This document shows positions 40,104 through 57,656 of a DNA stretch of 64,000 bases, piece by piece. The stretch spans positions 4,352,001 to 4,416,000 of the forward strand of contig OY776510.1 in the NCBI GenBank assembly GCA_963675665.1. The letters run 5' to 3'. Numbering within the stretch: position 1 is the first letter of the stretch; every line of letters starts with the position of its first letter. Both the position numbers and the translations under genes were made by a program. Source of the DNA: Spirochaetia bacterium. GTDB lineage: Bacteria; Spirochaetota; Spirochaetia; UBA9216. The notes below the pieces were generated by a model. It made no database searches. It worked only from the letters and a program-made list of their open reading frames with translations, and was not told the DNA's origin.

Positions 40104-40120
40104 CTTCTCCCTGATCTTTT

Positions 40121-41584
40121 CTATTGTACCTTAACTTTTGAAAATACCCTGTCGAAGCCTGCAAGCGCATCATCGATTATTTCATCAGTATCAGCAGCAC
40201 TTGTATAAAGCCTGCTACCGGCAAGAGTAATTATACCTTCAGCAGTATATGCCGCGCCGAAACTTTCCATTGCCTCTTTACGGGCATGCGCCTGGCGGAT
40301 TGTATCCTTAATCTTCCAGAACCTCTTGATATCGATATCAAGCAGCATTGCAGCTCCTGTTTCCAGATGACAGATTGCCCCCTGATTAAAAGCTACATAA
40401 GGCAGCCGGTATTTGCTGATGATATTCTTAAGCCCTGCCGTCAACCGGTCGGCGGCCTTTCCCGCTTTCACGCATGCATCAGTTTTTTCCATTTCACACA
40501 AAGTAAAATATCCTGCCGCCGCCGACAGCGGGTTGGCAGCCATTGTACCGCCGATAAGTGCTTTTTTGACTTTTGATCCCGCTTCAATTCCGGCGGCAAG
40601 ATATTTCATATATTCCCGCCTTCCACCAAGCCCGCCTGCAGACGGATACCCGCCTGCCACAACCTTTCCAAAAACCGTCAGATCAGGTTTGACATCAAAA
40701 TATCCCTGGGCACCGGCAAGACCTATTCTGAAGGCAGTTACTACCTCGTCGAAAATCAACAGCGCACCGTACTTGTCGCACAGCCGGCGGACTTCACTGT
40801 TAAACCCCGGAGATAAAGGCCGTGTGCCGCTTTCGGGACCAACGGGTTCTATAATTACAGCAGCCGTACCGCCGCGCAGCCGGTTCCGTTTCAGGATTCG
40901 TTCAAGGCTGACGGTATCATCAGGATAAAACTCACGGGTATATCTGAACATTTGCCGCGGAACGCCGTGAGCTTCCAGATGCATGGTCCCCGGCAACCGG
41001 ATACCGTAGGCAAGCTGATCGCTCCACCCGTGGTATGCGCCTCCCATTTTGACAATATTCTTCTTTTTTGTTGCAAGCCGGGCTACCCGTATTGCAGCCA
41101 TACATGATTCGGTACCGCTGCCGAGCATTCTGAAAAAATCAACAGAAGGTATCAGCTTTGTAATCTTTTCAGCCAGTTTGAATTCATATTCATGGAAAAG
41201 CCCGGTACATGGCCCGGTTTCATTCAGCAGCTTGATGACCTGCGTTCTGACCTCAGGAGGATTACTTCCAAGAACTGTCGGACCGCCCGCCTGCAGGAAA
41301 TCAATATACCTGTTTCCGTCCACATCCCAAAGATACGCTCCTTCGGCTTTTTCAACAGCAAGCGGAAACGGGTAATTGAAAGCGAGGTTGTGCTGAACTC
41401 CGCCGGGAATTATCTGTCTGGCTTTATCTGTCATAGCCTTCGAGCGAGAACATTTCTGTTCAAAATATTCCAGGACTTTTTCCATTTTATCTTCGGGTAT
41501 TGCAAGCAGGGTTCCCGACACAAGCTCTTTCAGCTGCTTTGTAACCTCAGCAGCATCAGGGTAACTTGAAATTGAATAGCTCAT
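40121..41584 (-). CDS. Class III PLP aminotransferase, HemL/GSA-aminomutase-like
   Basis: SGTES, YHGW, FDEVVTAFR, PLP-lysine FGKVVAGGYP and GTMAANP motifs. Confidence 0.88.
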   Translation of the reverse strand: MSYSISSYPDAAEVTKQLKELVSGTLLAIPEDKMEKVLEYFEQKCSRSKAMTDKARQIIPGGVQHNLAFNYPFPLAVEKAEGAYLWDVDGNRYIDFLQAGGPTVLGSNPPEVRTQVIKLLNETGPCTGLFHEYEFKLAEKITKLIPSVDFFRMLGSGTESCMAAIRVARLATKKKNIVKMGGAYHGWSDQLAYGIRLPGTMHLEAHGVPRQMFRYTREFYPDDTVSLERILKRNRLRGGTAAVIIEPVGPESGTRPLSPGFNSEVRRLCDKYGALLIFDEVVTAFRIGLAGAQGYFDVKPDLTVFGKVVAGGYPSAGGLGGRREYMKYLAAGIEAGSKVKKALIGGTMAANPLSAAAGYFTLCEMEKTDACVKAGKAADRLTAGLKNIISKYRLPYVAFNQGAICHLETGAAMLLDIDIKRFWKIKDTIRQAHARKEAMESFGAAYTAEGIITLAGSRLYTSAADTDEIIDDALAGFDRVFSKVKVQ

Positions 41585-41607
41585 GGGTTCCTCATATCTA
41601 AAAAAAT

Positions 41608-41633
41608 AAAAAGTGAGTACATACTCACTTTTT
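41608..41633. promoter_or_regulatory. TetR-type operator
   Basis: AAAAAGTGAGTA-CA-TACTCACTTTTT has perfect 12-bp arms and sits immediately downstream of the -10. Confidence 0.8.
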
Positions 41634-41634
41634 C

Positions 41635-41662
41635 AGTATACCACAGATAACAGATATGTCAA
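41635..41662 (-). promoter_or_regulatory. Sigma70 promoter of the aminotransferase operon
   Basis: Reverse strand TTGACA-N16-TATACT with extended TGn. Confidence 0.75.
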
Positions 41663-41689
41663 TTTAAAACCTCAGAACACCATAAATTA

Positions 41690-42334
41690 TCATGCCTGAA
41701 GAGCCCGGCGAATAAAAGCCATTGTAGTCCGCAGAACCCGCTCATCATCATCAAGGATATCCGGCGAGACGTAAACCTTCATTCTTTCCCGGTAAAACTC
41801 TGATGCGTATGAAAACTGCAACGACATAAAAAGATTGTCGATACAAAATGCAGCCATGTGATCATCAACATCAGCAGCGATTTCTCCATTCTCACGCGCC
41901 GTTCTGATTAGTTTTGAATAATACTCGGCTGATAGAGTTTCCATCTCATAAGAAAGTTTGGCTGCAAGTTCCCGGTTACCCTGTGTTGTTACCTCGTTAT
42001 ACAGATGAATCGTGTCCGGGTTATTACGTGAATGCTGCTGTATAACCTTTATTATCTGCTCAACTTTGTCAAAAAAACCGCCTTCAATTCTGTCTATATT
42101 CTCAAGCGATGCTTTCAGCGTTTTCACTGGCAGAGAACATATCATTAAAAACAGATTTTCCTTTGTTCCGAAATATTTATATAATGCGCCGACACTCACA
42201 CCGCATTTTTCAGCAATAATATTTATATTAGCCGCCCTGTATCCGAGCGACGCAAACTCTCCTGATGCTATGTTCAGTATTCTTTCCTGCTTTTCCCGTG
42301 AAAGCCGTTCAAACAGCGGTTTACAATATTTCAT
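41690..42334 (-). CDS. TetR/AcrR family regulator
   Basis: HTH IAEKCGVSVGALYKYFGTKENLF. Confidence 0.92.
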   Translation of the reverse strand: MKYCKPLFERLSREKQERILNIASGEFASLGYRAANINIIAEKCGVSVGALYKYFGTKENLFLMICSLPVKTLKASLENIDRIEGGFFDKVEQIIKVIQQHSRNNPDTIHLYNEVTTQGNRELAAKLSYEMETLSAEYYSKLIRTARENGEIAADVDDHMAAFCIDNLFMSLQFSYASEFYRERMKVYVSPDILDDDERVLRTTMAFIRRALQA

Positions 42335-42446: not shown

Positions 42447-44522
42447 ATGCTTTCTCCCGTAATCAAAATAATTGAAGAAAAATGCAACAATTGTCATATG
42501 TGTATCTCAGTCTGTCCAGTAAAATTCTGCATTGACGGTTCAGGAGATAAAGTACGTGTAAACCATGATCTCTGTATCGGCTGTGCCAGCTGCATTGACG
42601 TATGCTCGCAGAATGCCCGTGAAAAAATTGATGATACATATGAAGCGTTTACTGCAATTAGAAAACGAGAGAAAGTTGTTGCTGTTGCTGCACCGGCATT
42701 TATCAGCAGCTTCGATGAAATGCACCGTAATGTGATAGGCTGGTTGAAAGAAAAAGGTGTTGATGCAGTATTTGATGTCAGCTTCGGAGCCGAACTTACA
42801 GTTAAAAGTTATCTTGAATTTATCAAAAAAAATAACCCGAGAATGGTTATCGCCCAACCCTGCCCTACAATCGTCAGTTACATTGAAATATATAAGCCCG
42901 AACTTCTTCCAATGCTTGCTCCGGCCGACAGTCCGATGCTTCATACTGTCAAAATGATAAAAACCTTTTATCCGGAATATAGAAATCACAAAGTAATAGT
43001 TATCTCACCATGTATTTCCAAGCGCAGGGAATTTGATGCCACAGGATACGCTGATTTTAATGTAACAATTGCCGAACTTACAAAAGTTCTTAAGAAAGAG
43101 AACGTCAACCTCGCATCGATCCGACCCCGGGATTTTGATAATCCTTCCCCGGAAAGGGCCGCTCTTTTTTCTTCACCAGGGGGACTGATGAAAACAGTTC
43201 TAAGAGAGAAACCGGAACTTGAAGACAGGATCAGGAAAATTGAAGGCCCTTCGGAAATTTATGATTACCTGGAAAATTTACCGAAATCACTCAAAAAAGG
43301 AACTAACCCGCTTATTGTCGATTGTCTTAACTGTTCAAAAGGCTGCAACGGCGGCCCGGGTACTTTAAACAGGGACACACCGATTGATGATCTTGAACAT
43401 ATTATAAGATCCAGAACTGACGAGTTGAAAAAAAAGTATAAATCAGGGCTGACAGGAAAAACCCTGACAGGTAAAATTGACGCTCTTCTTAAAAAGTACT
43501 GGAAGGAGGGTCTTTATAACCGAAGCTACAGTAACAAATCCGGCAATCTGAAAATCTCTATTCCTGATCAAAAACAACTCGGAATAATCTATAATGATCT
43601 GTTAAAAGAAAAAGAAGAAGATTTCCTGAACTGTGCCGCATGCGGTTACAATTCATGTGAAAAAATGGCTATTGCCATTTTTAATAATCTGAATAAAGCT
43701 GAAAATTGTCACCATTACAAAAACAGAATAATTCAAATTGATAAAGAGAAAATAAATTCGATAAACATTCAGCTTAAAAACAAAATTAACCACTGTGAAA
43801 ACCTTATTTCCGACATCTCAAATTCATTGACAATGGTAAACTCAAATATGGATGATCAGAGCAGTTCTCTCGGAACGTCCTCCACATCGGTTGAACAAAT
43901 GCTTAATTCTTTCAATTCCATCTCCGAAAACTTCTCTTCACAAAGTATAAGACTTGAAGAACTTATAACTAAAGCGCAAAACGGAGAACGGGAAATGAAA
44001 ATCAACTCTGAAGCAATCAGGAAAATTACTGATGATATCGGAAGTATTGGTAAAATGATTGTAATGATAGACGATATATCCCAGAGAACCAATCTTCTTT
44101 CAATGAATGCCGCAATTGAGGCCGCCCATGCAGGCAACACCGGCCGCGGATTTGCTGTGGTTGCATCAGAAATTAAAAAGCTGGCCCATAATACAGCTGA
44201 AAAAGCAAAAGAGGCTGAAACTTCTCTTAAAAAAATAATTAAAGAGACAAACACAACCGGCAGCAGTTATGAAAATACTTCTGAACTGATAATCGATATC
44301 ATCTCAAATATTCTTGAACTTACAAATGCAATGAGCAACCTGCTGGAGGATGTCAATCAGCTGACCATAGGCAGCTCGGAGATCATGAATTCGATTACAA
44401 CCCTTAAAACTGATAACCAGAAGGTTGTTGACTCCACATCTAAAATCGGAGGACACATCAATCAGCTTCACGGGAACATGTCGGAGCTGGTTGCCATTGC
44501 TGCCGGGCATGCGGATGACTGA
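42447..44522 (+). CDS. Soluble chemoreceptor: 2x[4Fe-4S], [FeFe]-hydrogenase-like domain, FeS domain and MCP signalling domain
   Basis: [12 protein letters not shown] and [11 protein letters not shown]; [14 protein letters not shown] and [12 protein letters not shown]; CAACGYNSC; [16 protein letters not shown]; no TM helices. Confidence 0.88.
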
Positions 44523-44530
44523 GAATTTGT

Positions 44531-45466
44531 TTAATAACCGGGGATTATATTTTTAGAACTGCTTTTTTCTCTTTGAAGCGCCAGTTTTAAATTCCCTTTT
44601 GCATTATTCATTATCTCTTTTGCTTCCTCCGCATCTACTTTTAATTTCCACATAATCAAAGCAAGGGCGGCATTATTGTCAGTTTTCTCAAGATATTCGG
44701 ATGCTTCCCGTTCCGTAATGCCGGTAGCGCTGATTAATGCTTTCTTTACCCGTTCAACCAATTTCGCATTGGAAATTTCCACGCAAATCATCAGGTTTTT
44801 ATAAACACGACCCAACTTGATCATTACCCCCATTGAAATCATATTTATAACCATTTTCTGTGCTGTTCCGGCTTTATAAACTGTTGCGCCGGCTAAAACC
44901 TCAGGCCCAACGATAACACATATGGTTTTATCGACAATCATGCTTAAAACTGATTCTTTATTGTTAACCAAAGCAATAGTCAAACAACCTGTTTTTTTAG
45001 CGTATTTAACACCGGACACAACATATGGAGTACTTCCGGATGATGATATACCGACAACAGCATCACGCGACGTCAGATTTAACTTTTTCAATTCCTTAAT
45101 AATCTCTTCGGTATCATCTTCAACTCCGGTTATTACACGATAAACGGCTTCAGGTCCGCCGGCCAGAACTCCCTGAACCATATCGTATGGAACGTTAAAA
45201 TACGGAGCTACCTCTGAAGCATCTACAACACCCAGGCGTCCGCTTGTTCCGCCACCGATATAAATCAACCTTCCGCCTTCATCAAACTTGTCAGTTATAC
45301 TGTCTATGGCAACAGCAATATTCTCAAGTTCATTCCCGATTGCTGCCGGTATTTTATAATCTTCCTTGTTTATCATCCTGACAATATCAATTGTTTTTGA
45401 ACTATCAATATCTTCAGTTTCAGGATTAATCGACTCGCTTAAATACTGTTCTATTTCAAAACTCAT
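44531..45466 (-). CDS. murQ: MurQ-family (SIS) sugar-phosphate etherase, divergent
   Basis: GGRLIYIGGGTSGRLGVVDASE, GVEDD, SGSTPYV, GPEVLAG, KAGTAQKMV and GRVYKNLM motifs. The symbol denotes the family only. Confidence 0.8.
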   Translation of the reverse strand: MSFEIEQYLSESINPETEDIDSSKTIDIVRMINKEDYKIPAAIGNELENIAVAIDSITDKFDEGGRLIYIGGGTSGRLGVVDASEVAPYFNVPYDMVQGVLAGGPEAVYRVITGVEDDTEEIIKELKKLNLTSRDAVVGISSSGSTPYVVSGVKYAKKTGCLTIALVNNKESVLSMIVDKTICVIVGPEVLAGATVYKAGTAQKMVINMISMGVMIKLGRVYKNLMICVEISNAKLVERVKKALISATGITEREASEYLEKTDNNAALALIMWKLKVDAEEAKEIMNNAKGNLKLALQREKSSSKNIIPGY

Positions 45467-45999
45467 ATTAATTCCTGCAAAGCTGATAACGGGAGGGCTC
45501 TATCCTTCAGCTCTTTAATAATCAACCCTGTTACCCATGAGGCAGCTGTTCCTACAACATCAGTACACTTGCTTTCATGTGCTCCATTGTTATTAAACTG
45601 CTCTTTTTCTTCGGGATTTAAAAGATTGTATGTTCTGCCGAATATTCTCTTATGTATATCTTTACAAATTACAGTATTGTATTTTTCAATAAATTTTTCA
45701 TGAAGCGATACAGCCATTCTGAATGCACACCTTTTTTCAAATTCATCATCATCAAAATAGTCCCTTCTCCTGCCGAAGAGCATGCTCATCAATATAATAC
45801 CACCTGAATAACCGCCGCATATACCGTCACATAAAAGACCGCAGCCTGCACCTAATCCGCAAGCAGATTTGAACACCAGATCATTTCTGATATTCAAGGT
45901 GTCCTGAACTGCAGCTACAGTGCACTGTGCACATCCTCTGAATTCTTTTTCATATTTGTACCCCAGAGTATATGCCTGCTCAATCAACTTATTCATCAT
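45463..45999 (-). CDS. C_GCAxxG_C_C family putative redox protein
   Basis: GCAQC, GLGAG, ICGGYSG, VICKDI and KC motifs. Confidence 0.85.
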   Translation of the reverse strand: MMNKLIEQAYTLGYKYEKEFRGCAQCTVAAVQDTLNIRNDLVFKSACGLGAGCGLLCDGICGGYSGGIILMSMLFGRRRDYFDDDEFEKRCAFRMAVSLHEKFIEKYNTVICKDIHKRIFGRTYNLLNPEEKEQFNNNGAHESKCTDVVGTAASWVTGLIIKELKDRALPLSALQELI

Positions 46000-46012
46000 C
46001 CCTGCTCCGCAA

Positions 46013-47050
46013 TTAAAATTTTAAAACGGTCCTGTAATTATCAGTTCCCATCGACTCCTTAAAAGCTTCTTCTATCTCATCAAAAGGGAATATCTTACTA
46101 ACCAGCGGAGAAGGATCAATAATTCCTTCTGAAAGCATATTTATCGCAATCTGAAAATCATGTGAATTTGAATTTGCCGAACCGGTTATGTTGACCATTT
46201 TTTTATGCAACCAGTTCGGATCAATCTGAATCGGTTCTTTTGGATATATTGAACTGTAGAATGATACAGTGCCAAGCGGCGCTGCCATTTCGATTGATTG
46301 CTTCGCAACCTCAAGTAAAGCGGTTGCATCAATTACCGCATCAGCACCTCTGCCGTCAGTCAAGTCCTTAATTTTCTCTACAGGGTTATCATTTCCCGGA
46401 TCAATCACAAAATCAGCACCCAAAGCTTCTGCAAAATCCCTTCTTCTTTTATCCGGTTCACTCACAACGACCCTCAGACCCTTTTTTTGAAGTATAAGAA
46501 GATGCAGGATGCCCATGGTTCCGGCCCCTATTATCAATACATTTTCCGCTTTTTCGAGATTTATTTTCTCTATACTGTGTATTACGCAAGATAAAGGCTC
46601 AGTAAATGCTCCGATTGCATCATCAATGTGATTCGAAGCTTTGAACAGATTCCCCGGAGAAACAGCAAGGTATTCGCTGAATCCTCCTGTTCCCGCATAA
46701 GGCAATCCGCCGACCTTTTTATTATAATTATGATTTGAACAAATTCCATGCTCTCCGATCCTGCAGTAATGACAATTACCGCACATTGATAATAGACCGA
46801 TAGCGACTTTATCCCCTATCCGCCATTCTTTCCCATCGATATTGCTTCCGATTTGTTCTATTACGCCGAACATCTCATGACCGCCGACAAACGGGAATTC
46901 AACTTTATTGATACCGCTGAATGCACGCTGATCCCAGGTACAAATCGCACAGGCTTTTAATTTAATTAATATCTCATTACCCCGGGGGACAGGCCTCTTC
47001 AGAGATACAATTTCTATTTTATTTATATCCGATAGCAATGCAACTTTCAT
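46013..47050 (-). CDS. Zn-dependent (MDR) polyol/sugar dehydrogenase
   Basis: ICTWD, GHE, CGNCHYC...C and GAGTMG motifs. Confidence 0.92.
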   Translation of the reverse strand: MKVALLSDINKIEIVSLKRPVPRGNEILIKLKACAICTWDQRAFSGINKVEFPFVGGHEMFGVIEQIGSNIDGKEWRIGDKVAIGLLSMCGNCHYCRIGEHGICSNHNYNKKVGGLPYAGTGGFSEYLAVSPGNLFKASNHIDDAIGAFTEPLSCVIHSIEKINLEKAENVLIIGAGTMGILHLLILQKKGLRVVVSEPDKRRRDFAEALGADFVIDPGNDNPVEKIKDLTDGRGADAVIDATALLEVAKQSIEMAAPLGTVSFYSSIYPKEPIQIDPNWLHKKMVNITGSANSNSHDFQIAINMLSEGIIDPSPLVSKIFPFDEIEEAFKESMGTDNYRTVLKF

Positions 47051-47053
47051 TTT

Positions 47054-47842
47054 TTATATAATCTTTAAAGCTGATTCAACGCTATAGTCTTCATGTATTA
47101 TCTTTGAAATGGCCAAACACAGAGTTTCAATTGATTCGTGCCGCCAGATATTTCTGCCGATTGTAACACCTGCAGCTCCGGCATCCATGGCATTTTTCAC
47201 CATTGTTAACAATTCTTTATCTTCTCTTGAACTGCCGCCGCCGAGTACCAATACCGGTTTATAACAGTTTTCAATAACTTCTTTGAACGATTCGGCATCA
47301 CCGGCAAAGGGAGATTTTATAAAATCAGCACCATATTCAGCACCAAGCCGGTTTGCAAAAGAAATATTCTCAAGTGTTTTCAAATCATCATTAATAAAGC
47401 CTCCGGGTACCATTTCGGCACCAAAAACAAGCCCCCACTTCTTGCAGTCCGATGCAAGTCTCGATAGATTTTCGATCATTCTATCTTCGCGTTGGAGTCC
47501 AGGGAACCCCATACACATAACACCGTCTGCTCCAACTTTAACGGCATCTTCAACAGAAAAAGTTAATGTCACATCATCCATTATTTTCCCGCCTGGATGC
47601 AATATACCTGTTCCGCCGTCAAGTCGCAGAATAAGCCCGGCGTTGCCTATTTCTTTCTGAAAATTCCCGGCAACCCCGAATGTTGTGAGGATAGCATCAA
47701 CACCACCCTTTATTGATTTCCGAATAACCTCTGCGGGATTTTTCAAACCGCAATCAGACACTTCCATCAGCATCGCATGGTCCATTGCCAGCACAAAAGC
47801 CCTGTTGTCTTCCTTAAAAATATTGTTCCATCTTCGTTTCAT
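47054..47842 (-). CDS. Class I DhnA/LsrF-type aldolase
   Basis: LAMDH, Schiff-base Lys in GADFIKS, LGG and GRNIW motifs. Confidence 0.88.
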   Translation of the reverse strand: MKRRWNNIFKEDNRAFVLAMDHAMLMEVSDCGLKNPAEVIRKSIKGGVDAILTTFGVAGNFQKEIGNAGLILRLDGGTGILHPGGKIMDDVTLTFSVEDAVKVGADGVMCMGFPGLQREDRMIENLSRLASDCKKWGLVFGAEMVPGGFINDDLKTLENISFANRLGAEYGADFIKSPFAGDAESFKEVIENCYKPVLVLGGGSSREDKELLTMVKNAMDAGAAGVTIGRNIWRHESIETLCLAISKIIHEDYSVESALKII

Positions 47843-47875
47843 TATTAACCTCGGAATCTTTCCAATTGCAAAATA

Positions 47876-47919
47876 ATACTCCGGTTAAAAACAGACTACG
47901 TGATAATTAACCGGAGTAT
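47876..47919 (-). other. Intercistronic stem-loop after the binding-protein gene
   Basis: ATACTCCGGTTAA-N18-TTAACCGGAGTAT, 13-bp arms. Confidence 0.6.
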
Positions 47920-47930
47920 CTCATTAATGT

Positions 47931-49001
47931 TTATTCAAATATCGACTCGGGATCCGCTCCCTTGGGGGGAACGTTTGTTTCATCAATCCATTTATGAGGA
48001 ACATAAATTACCCGACTTTCAGGAACTACAGAAGCAACAGCCTTACCCTGCACTACAATATCATCGATAAGATCAGCTGTTCTGGTTGCCCAACCGCCAA
48101 AGTTTTGAGCTACAACACCACCAAACGGTTCACCGTTTCTAATCATATCGTACGCCTGAGAGGTTCCGTCAATTGTCATTGTAAACATATCATCTTTTGT
48201 ATAACCGGCATCGGAAGCTGCTTTTGCAACACTCCAGCCTATTCCGTCCCATGTTCCGAATACTGCGTCAATATCGTTGCCGTATTTAGTCAGCCATGCT
48301 GCCATAACATCATAGGAACCGGTCTCCCAGTTTGCAACAGTTACGGCTTCTGTATCCAGAATCTTTATTCCGGGATTATCTTCACTTTCAAATACAGCTC
48401 TGGCGGTATCTGCCCTGTATCTGTGAACATAAAGTGTAGGCATGTCAATTATACAGACATTTCCCTGTCCATGAAGCTTGTTTACTATCTGAGAGGCTAC
48501 TTCAGCTCCCATTGCCCAGCAGTTACTTGTAACATTAACAACAACAGCACCATCATCATCAATGCCGGTATCTATACAGAAAACCGGTATCCCTTCTGAT
48601 TTTGCTGCGTCAAGACCTTCCTGAATCGGTGTTATCTCTGCACAGGTAATTACGATTACATCAACTTTCTGTCCGACATAATTCATAACGCCTTCACTTA
48701 CTTTTACGATATCACCGGCAGCATCGGTCATATAAACCTTCCAGCCTTTTTCCTTTGCTTCTTTTTCAAATGCAGCGAACGCCCTCGAATTGGAATCAGC
48801 GGCTAAAGTCATTGTTACATAGCCGATATTCAGTTCTTTTGTTAATCTATCTGCGGTATTTGCGGTATCACTCGCTTCAGCCGATTTAACTTCGGGTTCT
48901 GCCGCTGCAGCCTCTTCCTTTGCACATCCGGCAAAAGCAAAAATTGCGATTGTTGCTACCAAAATCAGCAACACAAATTTACCCGTTATTTTTCTCTCCA
49001 T
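47931..49001 (-). CDS. Sugar ABC substrate-binding lipoprotein
   Basis: SD AAGGAG before the ATG at 49001; lipobox FAGC; type I binding fold. Confidence 0.88.
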   Translation of the reverse strand: MERKITGKFVLLILVATIAIFAFAGCAKEEAAAAEPEVKSAEASDTANTADRLTKELNIGYVTMTLAADSNSRAFAAFEKEAKEKGWKVYMTDAAGDIVKVSEGVMNYVGQKVDVIVITCAEITPIQEGLDAAKSEGIPVFCIDTGIDDDGAVVVNVTSNCWAMGAEVASQIVNKLHGQGNVCIIDMPTLYVHRYRADTARAVFESEDNPGIKILDTEAVTVANWETGSYDVMAAWLTKYGNDIDAVFGTWDGIGWSVAKAASDAGYTKDDMFTMTIDGTSQAYDMIRNGEPFGGVVAQNFGGWATRTADLIDDIVVQGKAVASVVPESRVIYVPHKWIDETNVPPKGADPESIFE

Positions 49002-49108
49002 TTTTTTCTCCTTCAAAAACTTTTCTTAGAAAAGACACTAATCACTAATTTTTAATACATCTTCTTCTTCCGATAACTGCCTCCTTTTATCTTTTTTACC
49101 GCCGTCGG

Positions 49109-50107
49109 CTACAATAAGGGAGGTCCGCCAATTTTCTTTTTGCCCGCCCCTGTTATACTTGCTATTGCAACGATAATGACAACACCGTGAACAATATATT
49201 TAAAATAAAATGGTACATTCAGCATTATCAGCCCGTTTTCAATAACCGCAATAAGTAATGTTGCAACAACAGTACCTGCAATATTTACACTTCCCGGCCT
49301 TAGAAAAACTGTGCCTAAAAAAACAACCGGAATAACGGACATAAGATAGCCTTCTCCGGCATCAGGAGGAGCAGAAGTTAGTTTTGAAGAAAGAATAATA
49401 GCAGCTACTGCCGAACCAAAACTACTTGCAGTAATTCCCAGCACCCTGTATAAATTTACATTTATTCCTGAAAATCTCGCAGCCTCAGCATTACCGCCTA
49501 CCGAATAGAGATACCTTCCTGCTTTTGTGTGCTCAGTGATTATAAATGTAATAACAGCAAAGACAATAAATATTAGTGCACAAATCGGAAGAGAATTAAA
49601 ACAGATATTATGCCTGCCAATAATCGTAAGAACTTCAGGAAAATCACCATAAACTGTTTTCCCTCGTGTTATCCAGTAGATTATTCCTTTCGCTATAGTC
49701 ATGGTGGACAAAGTTGCTATGAATGCATGAATACCTATCTTAACGATCAAAAAACTGTTAAAAAGTCCCCAGATAATCCCAATTGTCAGGGCTAAAACAA
49801 AAACCGGTAAAATATGCCAACCATTAATAATTAAAACCATATTTATTACATTTAATAATCCGGCAAGAGTAGCAAAAGACAAATCAAAATCTCCGACCAT
49901 TAATGCAAATGTAACGCCCAGAGCCATTACACCAATTATACTTGCCTGACGTAAAATATTTGTAATATTCTGTAATGTAAAAAATCTGTTTGCGCTTATT
50001 GCAAAGATTATTATGAGGATCACTAATCCAAACAACAAACCCCATTTCCTCAGCATCTTTGAGAAATTTATATTTTTAGTTTTGCTCAACACCTGGTCAT
50101 TTGCCAT
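49109..50107 (-). CDS. Sugar ABC transporter permease
   Basis: GDFDLS and YSVGGNAEAARFSGIN motifs. Confidence 0.92.
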   Translation of the reverse strand: MANDQVLSKTKNINFSKMLRKWGLLFGLVILIIIFAISANRFFTLQNITNILRQASIIGVMALGVTFALMVGDFDLSFATLAGLLNVINMVLIINGWHILPVFVLALTIGIIWGLFNSFLIVKIGIHAFIATLSTMTIAKGIIYWITRGKTVYGDFPEVLTIIGRHNICFNSLPICALIFIVFAVITFIITEHTKAGRYLYSVGGNAEAARFSGINVNLYRVLGITASSFGSAVAAIILSSKLTSAPPDAGEGYLMSVIPVVFLGTVFLRPGSVNIAGTVVATLLIAVIENGLIMLNVPFYFKYIVHGVVIIVAIASITGAGKKKIGGPPLL

Positions 50108-50121
50108 ACAGCCTCCTGCTT

Positions 50122-51612
50122 CTAAAGAACATTCTCCAATATATTTTTTTGATTGATATCATTTCCGATTAATTCAGAACTGACTGCATTTTCCCTCATT
50201 GTATAAATCCTGTCCGCCATACCTATGATCTCAAGGATATCTGAAGAAACCAAAAGAACAGCTTTACCCTGTCCGACTAATTCTCGCAAAATTAAATAGA
50301 CCTCTCTTTTAGTGCCTACATCAACGCCTACCGTAGGATCATCAAGAATCAACAGATCACAATTTTTTAAAAGCCATTTGGCAATTACTACTTTTTGTTG
50401 ATTGCCTCCACTTAAAGAATGTATTGCCTGATTTATATTTGAATAAACAATATTAAAATCTGTTAAACCTTTTTCAACAATATTTCTTTCTTTCAATTTG
50501 TTTATTATAAAACCGGGAAGCATATCTGAAAGATGAGAGACCATTATATTTTCCCGAAGAGAGAAATCTGAAAAAAGACCTTTTGTGTCCCGGTCTTCCG
50601 GCACGAGATAAACATTGTTTCTTATCAGATCAGCTGTCTTTATCTTTTTTATTAATTGATTATTTAGATACATTTCACCGCCGGAAATCTCTCTGATTCC
50701 AAAAATTGATTCAACCAGCTCGGTCATACCTGCACCGCTTAATCCATACAGACCGACAATCTCTCCGGCATTAACCTTCAAATTAATATCTCTGATCTCT
50801 TCCGATTGAAAGTGTTTTAATTCCAGTACACAATCACCTTTTTCCCCTTCTTTCGGAGGATAGAATTCAGAAAGATTTCTGTTAATAATCATAAAAATTA
50901 TCTTGTCTTTATCAAAATCATCTTTATCAACCGTTCCGACTTTCCTGCCGTTTCGTAAAACGACAATCCTTGTACAAAGCTCAAAAACTTCCTCCATTCT
51001 GTGTGATATGAAAATTACACTTAGGTTTTTATCACTATTTAGAGTCTTGATAATTTTCATTAGTTGTTCACTTTCATCTTTGGTCAGACTTGCAGTAGGT
51101 TCATCCAGAATCAGGACATCAGGCTCAAAAGAGAGGACTTTTAATATTTCAGTGATTTCTCTTTGTCCTGCGGACATTTCAGAAACCTTCAGGTTTAAAT
51201 CAAAATTCAGGTTAACAGGATATTTTTTTAATAATTCTTCAGCCTTTTTATTCAATAAGGCGTCATTGACAAAACATTTTACTGTGAATTCTTTCCCTAA
51301 AAAAATATTTTCCGCAGCAGTCAGTTCCGGAACAAGATTAGGACGCTGATGGACAAGACCGACACCATTAATCATTGCCTGATAAGGATTATCCCAATTT
51401 ACTTCTTTATTTCTGTATATTATATGCCCCGTATCCTTTTGATGTTCACCAACAAGAACTTTTAATAACGTTGATTTACCTGCCCCGTTTTCTCCAACGA
51501 TTCCGAGAATATCTCCTTCAATTAATTCAATAGAAATTTCGTTTAATGCATGTACGCCCTCAAAGAATTTATGTATTCCTTCACCTTTTAAAATTACATC
51601 ACCGTTTTTCAC
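50122..51612 (-). CDS. Sugar ABC transporter ATP-binding protein
   Basis: GENGAGKST, LSGGNQQKV and DDPTVGVDVG motifs. Confidence 0.94.
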   Translation of the reverse strand: MKNGDVILKGEGIHKFFEGVHALNEISIELIEGDILGIVGENGAGKSTLLKVLVGEHQKDTGHIIYRNKEVNWDNPYQAMINGVGLVHQRPNLVPELTAAENIFLGKEFTVKCFVNDALLNKKAEELLKKYPVNLNFDLNLKVSEMSAGQREITEILKVLSFEPDVLILDEPTASLTKDESEQLMKIIKTLNSDKNLSVIFISHRMEEVFELCTRIVVLRNGRKVGTVDKDDFDKDKIIFMIINRNLSEFYPPKEGEKGDCVLELKHFQSEEIRDINLKVNAGEIVGLYGLSGAGMTELVESIFGIREISGGEMYLNNQLIKKIKTADLIRNNVYLVPEDRDTKGLFSDFSLRENIMVSHLSDMLPGFIINKLKERNIVEKGLTDFNIVYSNINQAIHSLSGGNQQKVVIAKWLLKNCDLLILDDPTVGVDVGTKREVYLILRELVGQGKAVLLVSSDILEIIGMADRIYTMRENAVSSELIGNDINQKNILENVL

Positions 51613-51629
51613 ACTGCTCCTCCGTTTTA

Positions 51630-52376
51630 TTAATCCATTAATACTCCGCCGTTTACATCGAGGATTTCTCCGGTAACATAGCTTGACTCATCTGAAGAGA
51701 GAAAAAGTATTGCATTCGCCAGTTCTTCAGGCCTTGCCGGTCTTCCCATGGGAATCCCTTTAATTGCATTATCTATCTTTTCCTGAGGAAGACTTCGGAA
51801 CATATTTGTATCGCAAAAAGCCGGAATCACAGCATTGACATTAATACCCATTGGAGCCGAATATTTAGCCAGACATTTTGTAATTGAAAGAACTCCCGCT
51901 TTCGATGCCGCATAATTAATACCTGAAGTGACACCTCCCCTTTTTGCAGCCAGAGATGAAACATTGACAATTTTTCCATATCCGTTCTTTATCATCGTTT
52001 CCAGTACCGCTTTACACAGGAAGAAAGTTCCCTTCAAATTAATATCCATAACGACATCCCATTCTTCTTCAGTCATTTCAAAAATGGGAACAGTCGAGAA
52101 TCTTCCGGCATTATTAACCAGAACATCTATTCTTCCGAATTCCGTAATTATTTTTTCAGTGAAATTTTCAATTTCCTGTAAATCAGAAAGATCAAGCTTA
52201 ACCGAAAAACCTTTTTGCCCCAGATCATTAATTTTATAAACAGTTTCATTTAAACCGTTAATATCAATATCTGCAGCGATGACGGTTCCCCCATGAGAAG
52301 CCAGTTTTATTGCGGTAGCTTTTCCTATTCCGGTAGCTGCTCCTGTAACAACACAAATCTTATTCTTTAGTCGCAT
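51630..52376 (-). CDS. SDR family oxidoreductase
   Basis: TGAATGIG, NNAG and YAASK motifs. Confidence 0.93.
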   Translation of the reverse strand: MRLKNKICVVTGAATGIGKATAIKLASHGGTVIAADIDINGLNETVYKINDLGQKGFSVKLDLSDLQEIENFTEKIITEFGRIDVLVNNAGRFSTVPIFEMTEEEWDVVMDINLKGTFFLCKAVLETMIKNGYGKIVNVSSLAAKRGGVTSGINYAASKAGVLSITKCLAKYSAPMGINVNAVIPAFCDTNMFRSLPQEKIDNAIKGIPMGRPARPEELANAILFLSSDESSYVTGEILDVNGGVLMD

Positions 52377-52378
52377 AA

Positions 52379-53929
52379 TTACCCTCTTGGCGATGCATTC
52401 ATTTCGCTCCTAATAGTCAGTTCTTTTGATACATCTTTAAGTTTTTCATATGTCTTCACATACTGATCAATATAAAAACAATATTCATCAGTATTATTAA
52501 GATTCGGTTCTATTATTTTTCTTACTCTTACCATTGATTCGGCGGCTTCATTTATTGTTTTGTAAATGCCGGCAGCTTTAGTCGCAAGAATAGCACTTCC
52601 AAGAGAAACAGCCTGACTTTCTTCCGGAACCGATATCGGTTTTCCGGTTACATCAGAATGAATTTGAAGCCAAAGATCACTGTTTGCAACTCCTCCGCAT
52701 ACAACCAGTTCATTTACGGATATACCCTGCTTTTCCATCCTCGACAGAATTACCGCAGTACCGTATGTTACGCCTTCCATAATTGCCCTGTAGATGTGCG
52801 CCGGCGTATGACTCAAAGTCAACCCCCGGATAACACCTCTTGATTGCGGGTCAACCCATGGCGTTCTGTTTCCCTGCCAGTGTTCAAGAACCAGAAGGCC
52901 TTCCGATCCAAGCGGAATTTTCTCCGCCAGTTCATTCATTTCAGAATAGGTTCCACTGCCGGTTTCCACAGTTTTTTTGGAATTAAGAAAATTATCCTTA
53001 TACCATTTCAGAACTGACCCTGTAGAAACCTGCCCTGCTTCAGCAACCTGAAATCCTTCCAGCACAGCATCGGGAAAAGTTCCGTTTATTCCCGGTGCAT
53101 GAAATTCCTTGTCGACAAGGCTGATAAGTAAATGTGAAGATCCGGTAATTAAAGCCATCTTTCCAGGAATCAAAGCATTAACACCAACAACTCCGATATA
53201 TGCATCCGCTCCTCCTGCAGCAACCGGAATCCCTTTTTTTAGACCAGTTTTTTCAGCAATCTTTCCAGTTAATACACCCGCGGTATCGCCAGGACGCACA
53301 ATCCTTTTAGGTATTTTATCCAGAAAATCTGCAAGCCCCAGTTTGCCGTACAGATCTTCAGGAAATCCGTCGCCCTTTGAATTATAAAACCATCTGACTG
53401 TGATTGAATTCAGGTTAAGTGTCAGTTCCCCTGTGAGCATATAAGTAAGCCAGTCGGTTTGATCAAGAAAATATTTTGTTTTATTATATACCTCGGGCCT
53501 GTTCCTCTTTAGCCAGAGAACCTTGCATGGAAACCACTCCGGCGAAACCTTCCCATATCCGACAACCTTAAGCGACGCATCATCAACATTCGAGATTTCT
53601 TCGGCTTCATGAACTGCCCGCAAATCCATCCACATAATTGCATTTTCAACAGGATTTAAATCTTCACCCAGCATGACAACAGTTGGCGATGTTGCATCAA
53701 CACCAATTGCGGAAATATCAGCAGGATTCACACAGCTGCTTGAAATTGAAGCTCTAACAGCTTCTACCAGAGAGTTCTCCCATTGATGAACAGATTGCTC
53801 CGCCCAGCCGGAACGCGGGTATTGTGTTTTATTCTCGCTGACGCCGAACCCGAGGGTACAACCATTTTCATCAAAAACGGCAGACCTGATGCTTTCAGTT
53901 CCGATATCAATGCCTATCACATAACTCAT
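52379..53929 (-). CDS. FGGY family carbohydrate kinase (ribulokinase-like)
   Basis: GIDIGTES, MWMDLRA, GGADA, WQGNRTP and CGG motifs. Confidence 0.92.
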   Translation of the reverse strand: MSYVIGIDIGTESIRSAVFDENGCTLGFGVSENKTQYPRSGWAEQSVHQWENSLVEAVRASISSSCVNPADISAIGVDATSPTVVMLGEDLNPVENAIMWMDLRAVHEAEEISNVDDASLKVVGYGKVSPEWFPCKVLWLKRNRPEVYNKTKYFLDQTDWLTYMLTGELTLNLNSITVRWFYNSKGDGFPEDLYGKLGLADFLDKIPKRIVRPGDTAGVLTGKIAEKTGLKKGIPVAAGGADAYIGVVGVNALIPGKMALITGSSHLLISLVDKEFHAPGINGTFPDAVLEGFQVAEAGQVSTGSVLKWYKDNFLNSKKTVETGSGTYSEMNELAEKIPLGSEGLLVLEHWQGNRTPWVDPQSRGVIRGLTLSHTPAHIYRAIMEGVTYGTAVILSRMEKQGISVNELVVCGGVANSDLWLQIHSDVTGKPISVPEESQAVSLGSAILATKAAGIYKTINEAAESMVRVRKIIEPNLNNTDEYCFYIDQYVKTYEKLKDVSKELTIRSEMNASPRG

Positions 53930-53939
53930 AATATTCCCA

Positions 53940-54932
53940 TCATAAATTTTTGATTAAACTCAGAATTCTCATGGCTGCATCTTCATCAGTCACGAGCGAG
54001 TTTATAAATCCGCCCCGCAAAGCGCCCAGGATTACTTCCGCTTTATGAGCTCCGCCGGCGACACATAATCTTTTTGGAATTTTCTTTATGGTCCCTGCGT
54101 CTATTCCTATAAATCTGTTATTGATTTCCGCATCAAAAATATTTCCGTTGATATCTATCTGTTTTCCGCATACATCGCCGACAGCTCCGTTAAACAATAA
54201 TTCCTTTGACTCTTTTTCAGTTAAATAACCGGCCTTGTGATAAGCACTGCTTTCAAAATGGTTAGTTCCAAGGCCAAGCAAAGCAATATCAATGTGTTCA
54301 GCTTTCTGTAAAACCTTTGAAATACCCGGCTCCTTCAGCAACATATCTCTTAGTTGTGCATTCTTGACAATAAGCGGAGCCTGCAAAACAGTTAACTCCG
54401 CATTCATCTTGTCAGCAATTGTGCGTGCCAGTTCATAGCCGTCTGTATTTAAGTTAAGATCTCCAGAACCGCCTACAATCTGCACAACTTCCAGACCTAC
54501 ATGATTATTGGATGAAAACTGGGTTACCGTATGAGAAAGAGTGCTCCCGCGTGCAATTCCTATAACCGAATTGTCCTTGATCATGGAATTAAGAAGGTTG
54601 GCAGCAACCTTACCAATCTGTATTTTTGTCAGCTCCTCATTCATTTCAGACGGAACGACAATTACATTTTCCACATTGAATTTAGTCTTTATCTCTTCCT
54701 GAAACATAATGCCGAGTGAAGAGGTATCATTAATTCTGATTTCAACAATCTTTAAATCACGACAGGCTTTTAAAATTTTTGAGATGTTGGAACGTGATAA
54801 TCCTACTTTTTCCGAAATCTCCTGTTGAGAAAGTTCATCTATAAAATACATCTTGGCAACTTTTATATAAAAGTCACGCTTTGTATAATCCAGATCTCCA
54901 ATATTCACATTTTCCCCTTTTGATAAACTCAT
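53940..54932 (-). CDS. SorC/LsrR/DeoR-type sugar-binding transcriptional regulator
   Basis: VAKMYF..LSQQEISEKVGLSRSNISK HTH; GAVGDVCG; LVTDE. Confidence 0.92.
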   Translation of the reverse strand: MSLSKGENVNIGDLDYTKRDFYIKVAKMYFIDELSQQEISEKVGLSRSNISKILKACRDLKIVEIRINDTSSLGIMFQEEIKTKFNVENVIVVPSEMNEELTKIQIGKVAANLLNSMIKDNSVIGIARGSTLSHTVTQFSSNNHVGLEVVQIVGGSGDLNLNTDGYELARTIADKMNAELTVLQAPLIVKNAQLRDMLLKEPGISKVLQKAEHIDIALLGLGTNHFESSAYHKAGYLTEKESKELLFNGAVGDVCGKQIDINGNIFDAEINNRFIGIDAGTIKKIPKRLCVAGGAHKAEVILGALRGGFINSLVTDEDAAMRILSLIKNL

Positions 54933-54956
54933 GGTAACATAACCTCCTTAATATGT

Positions 54957-54994
54957 CAAATGTTCCTTTTGTATTTTTTTTGGAACATTTGTTC
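54957..54994. promoter_or_regulatory. Candidate SorC-type operator
   Basis: CAAATGTTCC-N15-GGAACATTTG inverted repeat, plus the palindrome GAACA-TT-TGTTC (54983-54994). Confidence 0.6.
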
Positions 54995-55178: not shown

Positions 55179-57656
55179 TCAACCCTGCACAAGCTTATCC
55201 TCTGAGATCCCAAGTAAAGAAGATGTGAGCCACAACCTTCCAAAGGGCTCAAGAACAATTTTAACAGTGCCGTCTTCTTCCGGAACATTTTTTCCGCTGA
55301 AATTATCAAATGTCATCCCTTCACAATTAAAAGATACTGAAACATTATCTTCGGAAAGGTTTACAGCTGTCAGGCTTTGAGCTTCTCCGCAGTGGTTCTT
55401 AATCAACACAACCGGAGGGTCGCCGACATCGTCGGTCGTGCCGGATAATTTAATCAGCTCGGCTTCATTGCCGCGATAATTAAGTGCCGGATCCGAATCA
55501 ACAAGTGCTATAAGGTTATTAATTCCTTTTGCAATTCCTGCTTCAAAACTGTTTTTATATTTTAGATTCGGAAGAAGCTCATCAAGATCCGTTTTTGTGC
55601 GTTTTATATTCCGCAACTCTCCCGTAACCTTTACCCTTTTATGATCGTTAGGTAATGCAAGCAAATCGTTAAAATAGATAGTTTTTACATTTCTGCCCAT
55701 TGCAGCAAACGACAGGGTCTCAAAAGCCAGGAACCGGGCTATCTCCAGTTCCTTGTTATCCATAACCGGAAGTGAATCACGGGTTGTAATACATAACTCA
55801 TACGGCTCACGTCCTTCAAGAAGCCTTGTAAAGAAAAAATCCGCGGCATCTGTAACTGTACCGGCAAATTCTTCAGAGAGGTTTAAAATATCATTAATTG
55901 ATTTTATTTCATTTTTAAGAAGAAGCGAAGCACCATTTCCTTTTGCAGGCTTAAACAGCTTTTTCGCCGCAGATCGGAAATCAGTTCCGGTCTCATGACA
56001 GAAACGTTCAAACTCCTCCTGCATACATTCCCTTGCAGTAATCGATTTGTACTTTACGTGTCCCCCGTTATCCGTAACAGCCTTGGTTAATACCATACGC
56101 TCTTCAAAAGTGAGAAGATCCAGACTGCCGCGTACTGACTTTCCGTCATGACTTTCAGACAGAGAGAACCTGATGCTGTTATGCGGAATATCATATTCTG
56201 CAATTTTCTTGAATATCCGGCCGATTATTTCAGGCTTTTTTGAATGAAATACCGCAGGTAAAAGACTTGCAAGATGAAAATCATGCATCATCGGAGGTGC
56301 ATTCTCACCTGTCGACATCTGGTTAAGAATAGTCGTCAGGCTGTCGTTTACCTCGAGGTTCGGTATAATCCGGGGACTGATGCATTCCATGGAAAGGTAG
56401 ATGATCTTCATGAGCAAGTCCAGCTCAGGCAGCCCGAAACATGAAGTACCCCATTTTTTAAACGCGTAATTGACCGCATCAAGCCTGAGCATATTCAGAT
56501 CTTTTGTGAGATACCATACAAGGTCTCCGGCAAGGGCCTTCAATCCCTCAAATGTTGCCGTATTAACATCAACCTGAACATGGCTGAAGGTTGTCAAGGC
56601 CCTGATTTCTTCTCCGAAAAGCCGGGCATTTGTTTCACGGAATAACGAACCGGCTGCTTCAGCCTGTTTTTTATTGAAACCGCAGCGAATAAACAGGTCT
56701 TCTTCTGTTTTAATTTCAGGAATGAAAATGTATGGAGTATGCTGGACTTCCTGTGTTCTTGAAAGAGTAAAGATGCTTTCGGCACTAACGTTCCGAAGTT
56801 TCAACCATTCAATAAATTCCGGTATATATTGATATTCCTCTTCCAGGAGCATCTGATCATTTTGGATTCGGTTGAACAGCCACAAAATATTGATTAAGGG
56901 TCTTTCCGTTTGTACTCCCCTCATCTTCCTGATTAGTTTTATCATAACATCCGTACGACCGTTATGGGAAAGGCTTCTGTACGGGACCTCTTTTGGAAGC
57001 CTTCTAAAGATTGAAAACAGGGGAAACGGTCGGGGTCTGAAAACCTTATCAAAACTGCCTGCAGCCTTCAGACTTTCGTATTCTTCCATTGAAAAAATAT
57101 AGAATTTTCGTCCGGCTTCATCATGACCTTCAAGATACGACTGGAAAACAGGATTTTCAATATCAACATGCCCCAGAACAAGATCATTCATGGAAAAATA
57201 TCTATGCATTATATCGGCAAACAGGCTGTTTGAGCCAAATGCACTATGTATATTATCCCGCTCAACCTGAGAGAAATAACCATCGTTAAATCGATCTTCA
57301 ACAATCGTACATGCCGGTAGAATATGAAGACCTCCGACTGCAGGAAACCATTGTTTTAAAAAATAATCGAGCGTTTCAAGGCTTTTTTCACCCTTTCTGC
57401 TGATACTGTCTGCATATGCAATTACAGTAACTTTCTGTTCAACCCTTGATAGCGGATCGGATGGATCATATGCAAGATCCATTTTCTTAATTTCTTCGGA
57501 TTTTTCATTCCAGCTTTTTTTAAGTAAGTCGATCCAGAAAACACTTATTCTACTGCCAAGTTCACCATACTCATTATCAGGATAGGCGCTGTGAAACAGC
57601 CGTTCTATCTCGGAAAGTTTGCCCGCGTCAAGCGGGTTCCATTTTTTGGTAATCAT
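55179..57656 (-). CDS. GH13 subfamily-18-like glycoside phosphorylase with large insertions
   Basis: IAYADSI, LHILP, TTFS..QVDVN, LRLDAV (nucleophile), GTSCFGLPE, LEV (acid/base), SHDG and PYEL motifs. Confidence 0.75.
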   Translation of the reverse strand: MITKKWNPLDAGKLSEIERLFHSAYPDNEYGELGSRISVFWIDLLKKSWNEKSEEIKKMDLAYDPSDPLSRVEQKVTVIAYADSISRKGEKSLETLDYFLKQWFPAVGGLHILPACTIVEDRFNDGYFSQVERDNIHSAFGSNSLFADIMHRYFSMNDLVLGHVDIENPVFQSYLEGHDEAGRKFYIFSMEEYESLKAAGSFDKVFRPRPFPLFSIFRRLPKEVPYRSLSHNGRTDVMIKLIRKMRGVQTERPLINILWLFNRIQNDQMLLEEEYQYIPEFIEWLKLRNVSAESIFTLSRTQEVQHTPYIFIPEIKTEEDLFIRCGFNKKQAEAAGSLFRETNARLFGEEIRALTTFSHVQVDVNTATFEGLKALAGDLVWYLTKDLNMLRLDAVNYAFKKWGTSCFGLPELDLLMKIIYLSMECISPRIIPNLEVNDSLTTILNQMSTGENAPPMMHDFHLASLLPAVFHSKKPEIIGRIFKKIAEYDIPHNSIRFSLSESHDGKSVRGSLDLLTFEERMVLTKAVTDNGGHVKYKSITARECMQEEFERFCHETGTDFRSAAKKLFKPAKGNGASLLLKNEIKSINDILNLSEEFAGTVTDAADFFFTRLLEGREPYELCITTRDSLPVMDNKELEIARFLAFETLSFAAMGRNVKTIYFNDLLALPNDHKRVKVTGELRNIKRTKTDLDELLPNLKYKNSFEAGIAKGINNLIALVDSDPALNYRGNEAELIKLSGTTDDVGDPPVVLIKNHCGEAQSLTAVNLSEDNVSVSFNCEGMTFDNFSGKNVPEEDGTVKIVLEPFGRLWLTSSLLGISEDKLVQG

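Follow-up and report, generated by a model that had tools for sequence, protein, structure and literature searches.

Within a 64,000-nucleotide stretch of the genome of a Spirochaetia bacterium (Spirochaetota, UBA9216; assembly GCA_963675665.1, contig OY776510.1, forward-strand positions 4,352,001 to 4,416,000; hereafter the window, whose positions are used below), ten open reading frames (ORFs), all on the minus strand from 54932 to 44531, form a putative sugar operon. The first encodes a SorC-type regulator and the last a divergent homolog of MurQ, the etherase of MurNAc-6-P (N-acetylmuramic acid 6-phosphate), which we call MurQ* (Table 1). The host genome (G000), a single contig of 5.15 Mb with a completeness of 96.4%, is compared below with a congener (G005), a member of the same family (G008), a genome of another family (G052), and genome G152; the closest named proteins to the operon products are from Spirochaetales. 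ORFs and profile matches agree with the gene order and families given in the first-pass annotation of the window, as do the spacings, which it had described as mostly below 15 nt (six of nine gaps; along the transcript 10, 2, 17, 14, 92, 88, 3, 13, and -4 nt), and we infer that the genes are co-transcribed.

None of the catabolic enzymes of the operon reached an equivalog cutoff, no recognizable isomerase is among its families, and searches of solved structures with the binding protein, the kinase, the short-chain dehydrogenase/reductase (SDR), and the Zn-dehydrogenase indicated no substrate. Aligned with MJ0400 and an archaeal fructose-bisphosphate aldolase, the DhnA-type aldolase retains what we take to be the Schiff-base lysine and carries Val at the position of the presumed catalytic tyrosine. 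Orthologs of the binding protein above 70% were found in three of 400 other genomes of the class. The C_GCAxxG_C_C gene lies immediately 5' of the MurQ* gene in G005 and G052 too; its product has no solved relative by sequence, and the Atlas gave PF09719 clusters only.

Upstream of the regulator gene (sorC), a putative operator overlaps a candidate promoter. The operator pattern was derived from G000, where its single perfect match is given by construction and where two mismatches yield 11 sites, seven of them within one repeated element. It recurs 5' of the sorC orthologs of G005, G152, and G052 with zero, one, and two mismatches, the inverted repeat lies over the -35 hexamer in all four genomes with the regulator, and the TTGACA hexamer occupies the same place in all four genomes compared. 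The promoter scan by itself was at chance level (29 sigma-70-like sites against 31.3 in shuffles). Because the conserved promoter overlaps the first ATG of the longest ORF (54908-54959), sorC perhaps starts at the GTG of codon 9. A GAACA-N2-TGTTC palindrome 5' of sorC starts at 54994, the outer limit that the first-pass annotation gave to the operon. With a Sugar-bind regulator (PF04198) and a conserved repeat over the promoter, the locus has the features of a SorC/DeoR regulon, and the putative operator resembles the DeoR operator of B. subtilis, which at 39 bp likewise overlaps its promoter (PMC11229326).

Table 1. Predicted genes and regulatory features of the operon, in the direction of transcription (window positions)
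Feature	Position	Strand	Length	Remarks
Putative SorC operator	54957..54991			Inverted repeat CAAATGTT-N19-AACATTTG; downstream arm overlaps TTGACA -35 hexamer
Sigma-70-like promoter, candidate	54931..54959	-		TTGACA-17-TACCAT, extended -10; 10/12 matches; overlaps first ATG of sorC
SorC/DeoR-subfamily repressor	53940..54932	-	330 aa	PF04198; cutoffs of LsrR and B. subtilis DeoR not reached; orthologs 61-77% in G052, G152, G005
FGGY carbohydrate kinase	52379..53929	-	516 aa	PF00370 + PF02782; nearest models ribulokinase, pentulose kinase; below all equivalog cutoffs; nearest solved 3qdk, 3gg4
SDR dehydrogenase	51630..52376	-	248 aa	YxxxK intact; orthologs 73% in G005, G152
CUT2 monosaccharide ABC ATPase	50122..51612	-	496 aa	Profile matches
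CUT2 ABC permease	49109..50107	-	332 aa	Single copy; profile matches
Sugar-binding protein	47931..49016	-	356-361 aa	PF13407; best solved match E 1e-18; without close characterized relative
DhnA-type class I aldolase	47054..47842	-	262 aa	PF01791; LsrF model 129 bits against cutoff of 297
Zn-dependent alcohol dehydrogenase, accessory	46013..47050	-	345 aa	70% in G005; absent between aldolase and C_GCAxxG_C_C genes of G152
C_GCAxxG_C_C protein	45463..45999	-	178 aa	PF09719 + TIGR01909; stop overlaps MurQ* start
MurQ*, divergent MurQ-family protein	44531..45466	-	311 aa	E85, E116, K235 retained; A72G, C86V, T89Y, E113T, S194A, R196V, D228C

Residues, fold, and phylogeny of MurQ*

MurQ* is homologous to canonical MurQ over its full length, at about 44% identity and with the same SIS fold, and exceeds the curated cutoffs of TIGR00274 (333.8 against 302), PRK05441 (349.8 against 168), and PRK12570 (355.4 against 255). 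It aligns without gaps with the sequence of 4LZJ, which was also the top fold match of its predicted structure, a model of low confidence (pLDDT 65.5, with active-site loops below 50) for which GlmS, GmhA, and arabinose-5-phosphate isomerase ranked next after MurQ and glucokinase regulatory protein (GKRP). In a gap-free alignment with H. influenzae MurQ, E85 (of DASE), E116 (of GVED), and K235 fall on residues 89, 120, and 239, which we take to be the catalytic glutamate pair and the ring-opening lysine, as the first-pass annotation had held for both glutamates.

A residue census compared 16 clade sequences with 427 canonical MurQs. E85, E116, K204, and K235 are kept in all 16, and R239, together with E85, E116, and K235, is unchanged in every clade sequence that covers those positions. 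Lost from all 16 are T89, present in 426 of the 427 canonical sequences, and E113 (the first Glu of xEGAED, replaced by T, P, or S), which is E in 425; A72, C86, and D228, with canonical retention of 402, 376, and 369 of 427, are also lost clade-wide. Two subclades, 51-64% identical between subgroups, have altered different pocket positions: eight sequences, the query included, carry Y89 and A194 and replace R196 with V or A (S194 and R196 being present in 425 and 426 canonical MurQs), and the others combine L74 and S89 with a retained R196. At the near-invariant pocket residues of MurQ (the P-T of ECPPT, the first Glu of EGAED, and the Ser and Arg of GS(T/S)R(M/L)K), the query reads T89Y, E113T, S194A, and R196V. 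Among 37 near-invariant columns it differs at 5, as against canonical sequences, which differ at none (346 sequences), one (51), two (20), three (8), or four (2). The changes to EVAPYF and GATVYK reported earlier are present; GATVYK characterizes only half of the clade, and the loss of E113 and the A72G change had been missed. Secundilactobacillus collinoides has a MurQ changed independently to GATLMK (S194A, R196L), encoded after genes that by eye are amidase-like and peptide-binding-like (L060:9929-10903).

The likely position of these changes follows from GKRP, to which a MurQ profile was aligned (GKRP numbering is our own count). Query positions 74, 75, 85, 116, and 141 map to GKRP T109, S110, E348, E153, and S179, and positions 193, 195, 196, 233, 235, and 239 to G256, S258, R259, N512, K514, and R518, all of which, with H351, are listed as belonging to the fructose-phosphate site of GKRP (PMC4109836). 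E113 maps to E150, which comes within 5 A in simulation (PMC10355436), and T89 to T352, the neighbor of H351. On this mapping, the altered residues would by homology lie in or beside the sugar pocket, leaving the two acid-base residues and the majority of the phosphate contacts in place. R196 may bind the lactyl group of MurNAc-6-P. Frog GKRP, reported to be a weak etherase (bioRxiv 10.64898/2026.05.08.723886), retains P-T, E-x-x-E, and GSSRMK, that is, all three residues lost by the query. The clade and human GKRP have GGGTSGR and ISN in common, where canonical MurQs have GAGTSGR and mostly A/P-T/S-N.

Twelve proteins are 55-84% identical to MurQ*, after which identity drops to 49% or less (8000 candidates scored), and when 1.84 billion representatives were searched with a profile, one clade match reached 536 bits and the next match 352. 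In a quick tree of 118 of 443 rows (clade members, top matches, class members, and a random draw), the 12 clade rows share one branch (SH-aLRT 100, stem 0.64), so that the phylogenetic check proposed earlier places MurQ* in a small clade, separate from the 28 canonical MurQs that represent its class, including those from its own family; the clade's placement close to MurQs of clostridial type has weak support (84) and is biased by the choice of rows. The clade is rare and mostly metagenomic: the variant occurs in three of 401 genomes of the class, and 57 others have another MurQ-type match.

The gene is under purifying selection like its neighbors. Between G000 and G005, murQ* has a dN of 0.167 and a near-saturated dS of ~2.2 (dN/dS about 0.07), and the dN of the other nine genes (0.08-0.21) includes its value. 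The motif changes are not sequencing errors, because the G005 protein and P0003 share Y89, A194, and V196 and because a strain contig from another run has no listed amino-acid change in these motifs. This contig covers the full 11.8-kb stretch with 80 differences; among the changed codons listed for murQ*, 11 of 14 are synonymous, and the motif residues are untouched by any of those listed.

Genomic context of MurQ* and of canonical murQ

The neighborhood check suggested with the first-pass annotation found the operon conserved to differing extents. G005 has all ten genes, identically arranged and 70-89% identical, with a BtpA-family gene after the last of them. G052 has the operon in pieces (sorC-kinase; binding protein-aldolase; the end of a C_GCAxxG_C_C gene directly before murQ*), and the SDR and Zn-dehydrogenase were not found in this fragmented assembly, where they may fall in gaps. 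G152 combines sorC-kinase with E1a-E1b-SDR-ABC-aldolase-C_GCAxxG_C_C-E2, in which E1 and E2 are acetoin-dehydrogenase-like; in this genome, which is 87% complete and whose contig stops just past E2, there was no murQ match, no Zn-dehydrogenase at that place, and on the assembled contigs no isomerase standing in for MurQ*.

Beyond the genomes that could be read, genes were joined by the equal size of their longest contigs. Contigs of 550,860, 24,708, 20,342, 11,146, 18,863, and 10,473 bp, the last two belonging to the subclade that keeps R196, tied MurQ* in this way to the aldolase and often to the binding protein as well. Counting G000 and G052, eight of 13 MurQ* clade clusters were linked to the operon's aldolase or binding protein, with both subclades represented; three of the remaining clusters lie on contigs below 4 kb. 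Aldolase and binding protein also occur without a matching MurQ* on contigs of 53,721, 36,536, 33,256, 10,859, and 9,371 bp. Taken with G152, this indirect linkage suggests a conserved core to which MurQ* is an optional addition; the earlier claim that murQ* is part of the operon therefore stands as to co-conservation, with all ten genes in G005, but as an accessory rather than a core gene. Scans of genome and metagenome contigs yielded no further variant loci, only canonical MurQs, and 70 plasmid records held no MurQ* variant. A search for the aldolase across the phylum returned two relatives at 50% only, of which the one that was read has a different context. A related aldolase (48%) and Zn-dehydrogenase (37%) form a pair in G347 (L248:8618-13167), near an amino-acid permease, an aldehyde dehydrogenase, and glycine-reductase-like genes (by eye).

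The pathway that a canonical MurQ serves appears to be missing from the host. As the first-pass annotation had stated, no nagA, anmK, or murP-type phosphotransferase system (PTS) gene lies near the operon, and the statement holds genome-wide: tblastn of G000 with nagA, anmK, murK, murP, mupG, amgK, and namZ proteins gave no match at E 1e-3, and models of AnmK and NagA had no match in G000, whereas both were found beside the canonical murQ of G008. BadF-family matches over the cutoff in G000 were all in frames of ~1400-1500 aa. The same tblastn did find nagB and two GH3 genes. Thus, neither a supply of MurNAc-6-P (AnmK, MurK, or MurP) nor a sink (NagA) was detected in G000, which supports the view that this genome lacks the MurNAc pathway. 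The nagB gene (82% to that of G008) closes an ABC sugar cluster at G000:C1 2010708-2016099, while no nagA was found in the genome.

Canonical murQ loci have a different setting. In 160 control loci, namely those met in the contig scans for variants, a cell-wall-recycling partner was present at 114 (63 of 84 among loci of at least 15 kb), and none had a homolog of the FGGY kinase, aldolase, SorC regulator, C_GCAxxG_C_C protein, or binding protein; a separate comparison of canonical loci had the same outcome, with one permease match. The three variant loci are without a recycling partner. The suggested search for a separate canonical murQ in G000 found none, MurQ* being its sole murQ homolog, which is half of what the first-pass annotation had named as refuting its proposal. 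This weighs little against repurposing, because four of five congeners have no murQ match whatsoever.

Proposed function and competing explanations

From what is known of the families involved, the operon would serve the inducible catabolism of some monosaccharide or polyol. The ABC system would import the sugar or polyol, the SDR and the FGGY kinase would yield a keto-sugar phosphate that also frees the SorC repressor from its operator, and the class I aldolase would cut this intermediate to give triose phosphate plus a short carbonyl compound. The latter could be disposed of by the Zn-dehydrogenase or, in G152, by the acetoin-dehydrogenase-like complex; the swap between the two fits the disposal of a small carbonyl fragment, and such a complex has been proposed for lactaldehyde disposal in Caldicellulosiruptor (PMC8579813).

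For MurQ*, it is very likely that the job is not cleavage of MurNAc-6-P. The protein would work like a MurQ-fold acid-base enzyme, yet it departs from canonical MurQs in its pocket residues and in its pathway context, and because both differ we do not class it as a MurNAc-6-P etherase; it is probably a co-conserved variant within the MurQ family that is mis-annotated as one. The reading we prefer, with a probability of about 0.38, is an accessory eliminase or etherase for a sugar phosphate without a lactyl group. In such an enzyme, E116 would take the proton next to the carbonyl of the open-chain sugar phosphate and E85 would protonate the oxygen departing from the adjacent carbon, in a pocket unfit for the D-lactyl ether of MurNAc-6-P; most likely, a small neutral O-substituent or water would be stripped and the substituted sugar thereby fed into the core pathway. 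A precedent is NagS, an SIS protein related to MurQ whose reaction is the elimination of water at C3 (PMC12680351). That the substituent is a methyl or other small alkyl ether, cleaved by oxygen-free beta-elimination, we regard as doubtful. The proposal of a new pathway with a repurposed etherase is accordingly upheld in part: a co-conserved SorC sugar operon, purifying selection, a remodeled pocket, and the lack of a MurNAc pathway favor it, but the O-methyl or other ether substrate is not established, because an isomerase or epimerase and non-catalytic binding fit the same data (human GKRP keeps the equivalents of E85, E116, and K235).

Several observations weigh against this reading. The eight other clade sequences keep GSTRMK, with S194 and R196, alongside S89 and T74L, and K198 is retained as well; loss of the carboxylate site, as judged from these residues, is therefore not clade-wide. 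MurQ* passes the equivalog cutoff, and all 13 A1 members match MurQ models best. Retention of E85, E116, and K235 is no proof of catalysis, because GKRP keeps these residues and the rat protein has nil or trace etherase activity (bioRxiv 10.64898/2026.05.08.723886). The same source gives a kcat/Km of 3140 per M per s for E. coli MurQ. In two of the three variant genomes, G005 and G052, nagA is present, though on contigs other than that of murQ*; its neighbors there are nagB and a ROK-type regulator (by eye) with another FGGY kinase. Within the family, nagA was found in four of 11 genomes, each of which has some murQ. Of the eight links, the five beyond G000, G005, and G052 rest on equally sized contigs and not on read DNA, and for P0010 and P0011 (contigs of 14,479 and 68,247 bp) no counterpart was met among the listed aldolases, part of which were looked up. 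FGGY kinases usually give ketose or polyol phosphates and rarely aldose 6-phosphates, whereas MurQ requires an aldose 6-phosphate; this is the main weakness of the eliminase reading and makes any order of the steps tentative.

The type of phosphate that FGGY kinases make is a better fit to a sugar-phosphate isomerase or epimerase, which we consider possible, if less so than an eliminase. Here, a C2 hydroxyl would take the place of the N-acetyl group, E116 would give the enediolate, and E85 or E116 would reprotonate it, bringing a second sugar or epimer to the aldolase. Isomerization is the usual task of SIS proteins, among them those that stand next in the fold ranking, the operon has a kinase and an aldolase with no recognizable isomerase, and a related FGGY paralog adjoins a ribulose-phosphate epimerase in G000 and G052; yet the literature searched holds no MurQ-clade isomerase, the G152 core runs without MurQ* or a replacing isomerase on its assembled contigs, and both glutamates are invariant, including the one that we take to be the leaving-group acid. 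The same intact catalytic residues, together with the TIGR00274 score and the status of only murQ in the genome, could point to an enzyme that still acts on MurNAc-6-P or a near muramic-acid analog, supplied through the operon's transporter and kinase, or just placed at the operon end without a part in it; nagA is present in G005 and G052, and the nagB of G000 could handle glucosamine-6-phosphate from a deacetylated substrate. We find this unlikely in view of three lost residues that frog GKRP and no fewer than 425 of the 427 canonical MurQs keep, of nagA, anmK, murK, and murP not being found in G000, of a context shared by none of the 160 canonical loci, and of a tree in which MurQ* does not group with the canonical MurQs of the spirochaete class or of its own family.

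That MurQ* is a non-catalytic sugar-phosphate sensor modulating the operon's kinase or aldolase, as a bacterial parallel to GKRP, is quite unlikely. GKRP was derived from MurQ by re-use of its site (bioRxiv 10.64898/2026.05.08.723886), GGGTSGR and ISN are common to the clade and human GKRP, and the core can do without MurQ*; however, the contact of GKRP with glucokinase needs a loop inserted in the jawed-vertebrate ancestor (bioRxiv 10.64898/2026.05.08.723886), the clade is without the equivalents of R259 and E150 that are kept in the GKRP ligand site, and the operon already has SorC as a sensor. A decaying or chance passenger, to which the last place in the operon, the patchy distribution (3 of 401 class genomes), and the departures from invariant residues might point, is highly improbable given a frame that is intact in all full-length members, the low dN/dS, the mostly synonymous differences from the strain contig, changes that are shared and focused on the pocket, and an aldolase link that holds across both subclades; a pseudogene reading of murQ* was rejected in view of the purifying selection.

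Should the eliminase reading be true, the MurQ annotation of the clade would be wrong and MurQ in bacteria would not be bound to one substrate. The two subclades are a natural experiment on the specificity residues of MurQ, with a parallel in the evolutionary route from MurQ to GKRP, and the binding protein, repressor, and kinase of the operon permit a direct ligand screen. Were alkyl ethers cleaved, anaerobes could reach O-alkylated sugars or polyols by a route that needs no cofactor, and a bacterial MurQ would have a job beyond cell-wall recycling.

Known systems and neighboring loci

MurQ* differs from canonical MurQ in the loss of T89 and E113 (and, in the query's subclade, of S194 and R196), in its separate clade, in its FGGY/aldolase/SorC operon, and in a host without detectable nagA, anmK, murK, or murP. 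GKRP descends from MurQ, binds other sugar phosphates in its site, and has G72 and ISN in common with the clade, but it is a eukaryotic fused double-MurQ of more than 600 aa (about 620) with R259 and E150 kept, whereas MurQ*, at 311 aa, is a single unit and not a fused double-SIS chain. NagS, the N-acetylglucosamine-6-phosphate dehydratase of Streptomycetaceae, carries out C3 elimination on a non-MurNAc substrate; in the paper's description it is set apart in a clade of its own, limited to Streptomycetaceae and outside MurQ (PMC12680351), while MurQ* lies inside the MurQ family.

The echo of the lsr (autoinducer-2, AI-2) operon noted earlier is architectural, consisting of a SorC regulator, an FGGY kinase, a CUT2 ABC system, and a DhnA-type aldolase. 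It does not extend to family membership: the operon's proteins score 211 against a cutoff of 528 bits for LsrK, 129 against 297 for LsrF, and 166 against 486 for LsrR, a single permease stands in place of LsrC and LsrD, there is no LsrG match, the binding protein was matched by none of the LsrB models at E 1e-10, and the operon has no further ORF. Membership in AI-2/Lsr was rejected, with LsrK, LsrF, and LsrR all far under their cutoffs. A gene that is more LsrF-like (by eye) is present elsewhere in G000. Rhamnose and fucose kinase-aldolase pathways resemble the operon in the FGGY kinase, the aldolase, and aldehyde disposal, but the operon has a class I instead of a class II aldolase and, where those pathways have an aldose isomerase, an SDR. 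The literature searched, with subscription papers mostly outside it, contained no kinase-aldolase pathway carrying a MurQ homolog, no MurQ with FGGY and aldolase, no MurQ etherase acting on O-methyl sugars, and no bacterial MurQ working outside cell-wall recycling, and the part of it on FGGY with acetoin dehydrogenase and on C_GCAxxG_C_C proteins described no such operon.

C_GCAxxG_C_C genes recur beside sugar operons with FGGY, SorC, or aldolase genes (G000:C1 418575 and 1904877, window 45463, and L243:7271-7879), hinting at an accessory role of this protein in sugar catabolism; three of the five copies in G000 lie beside such operons, one of them adjoining an LsrF-like gene. The FGGY paralog (57-59%) next to a ribulose-phosphate epimerase is found at L243 in G052 and at L219 in G000 (C1, about 1659400-1663500). 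In G052, this locus continues with a complete acetoin-dehydrogenase-like set, E1a-E1b-E2-E3, with C_GCAxxG_C_C and BtpA-like genes nearby.

Convergent with the MurQ* gene, at a gap of 8 nt, is a plus-strand gene (42447-44522) for an FeFe-hydrogenase-like domain fused to a methyl-accepting chemotaxis protein (MCP) signaling domain; at this site, G005 has its BtpA-family gene. Upstream of the operon (55179-57656, minus strand) lies a gene for an 825-aa protein, Pfam-negative with a weak sucrose-phosphorylase match, which is present also in G005. Farther downstream, a minus-strand trio of TetR, class III aminotransferase, and class II aldolase genes (39435-42334) keeps its synteny in G005.

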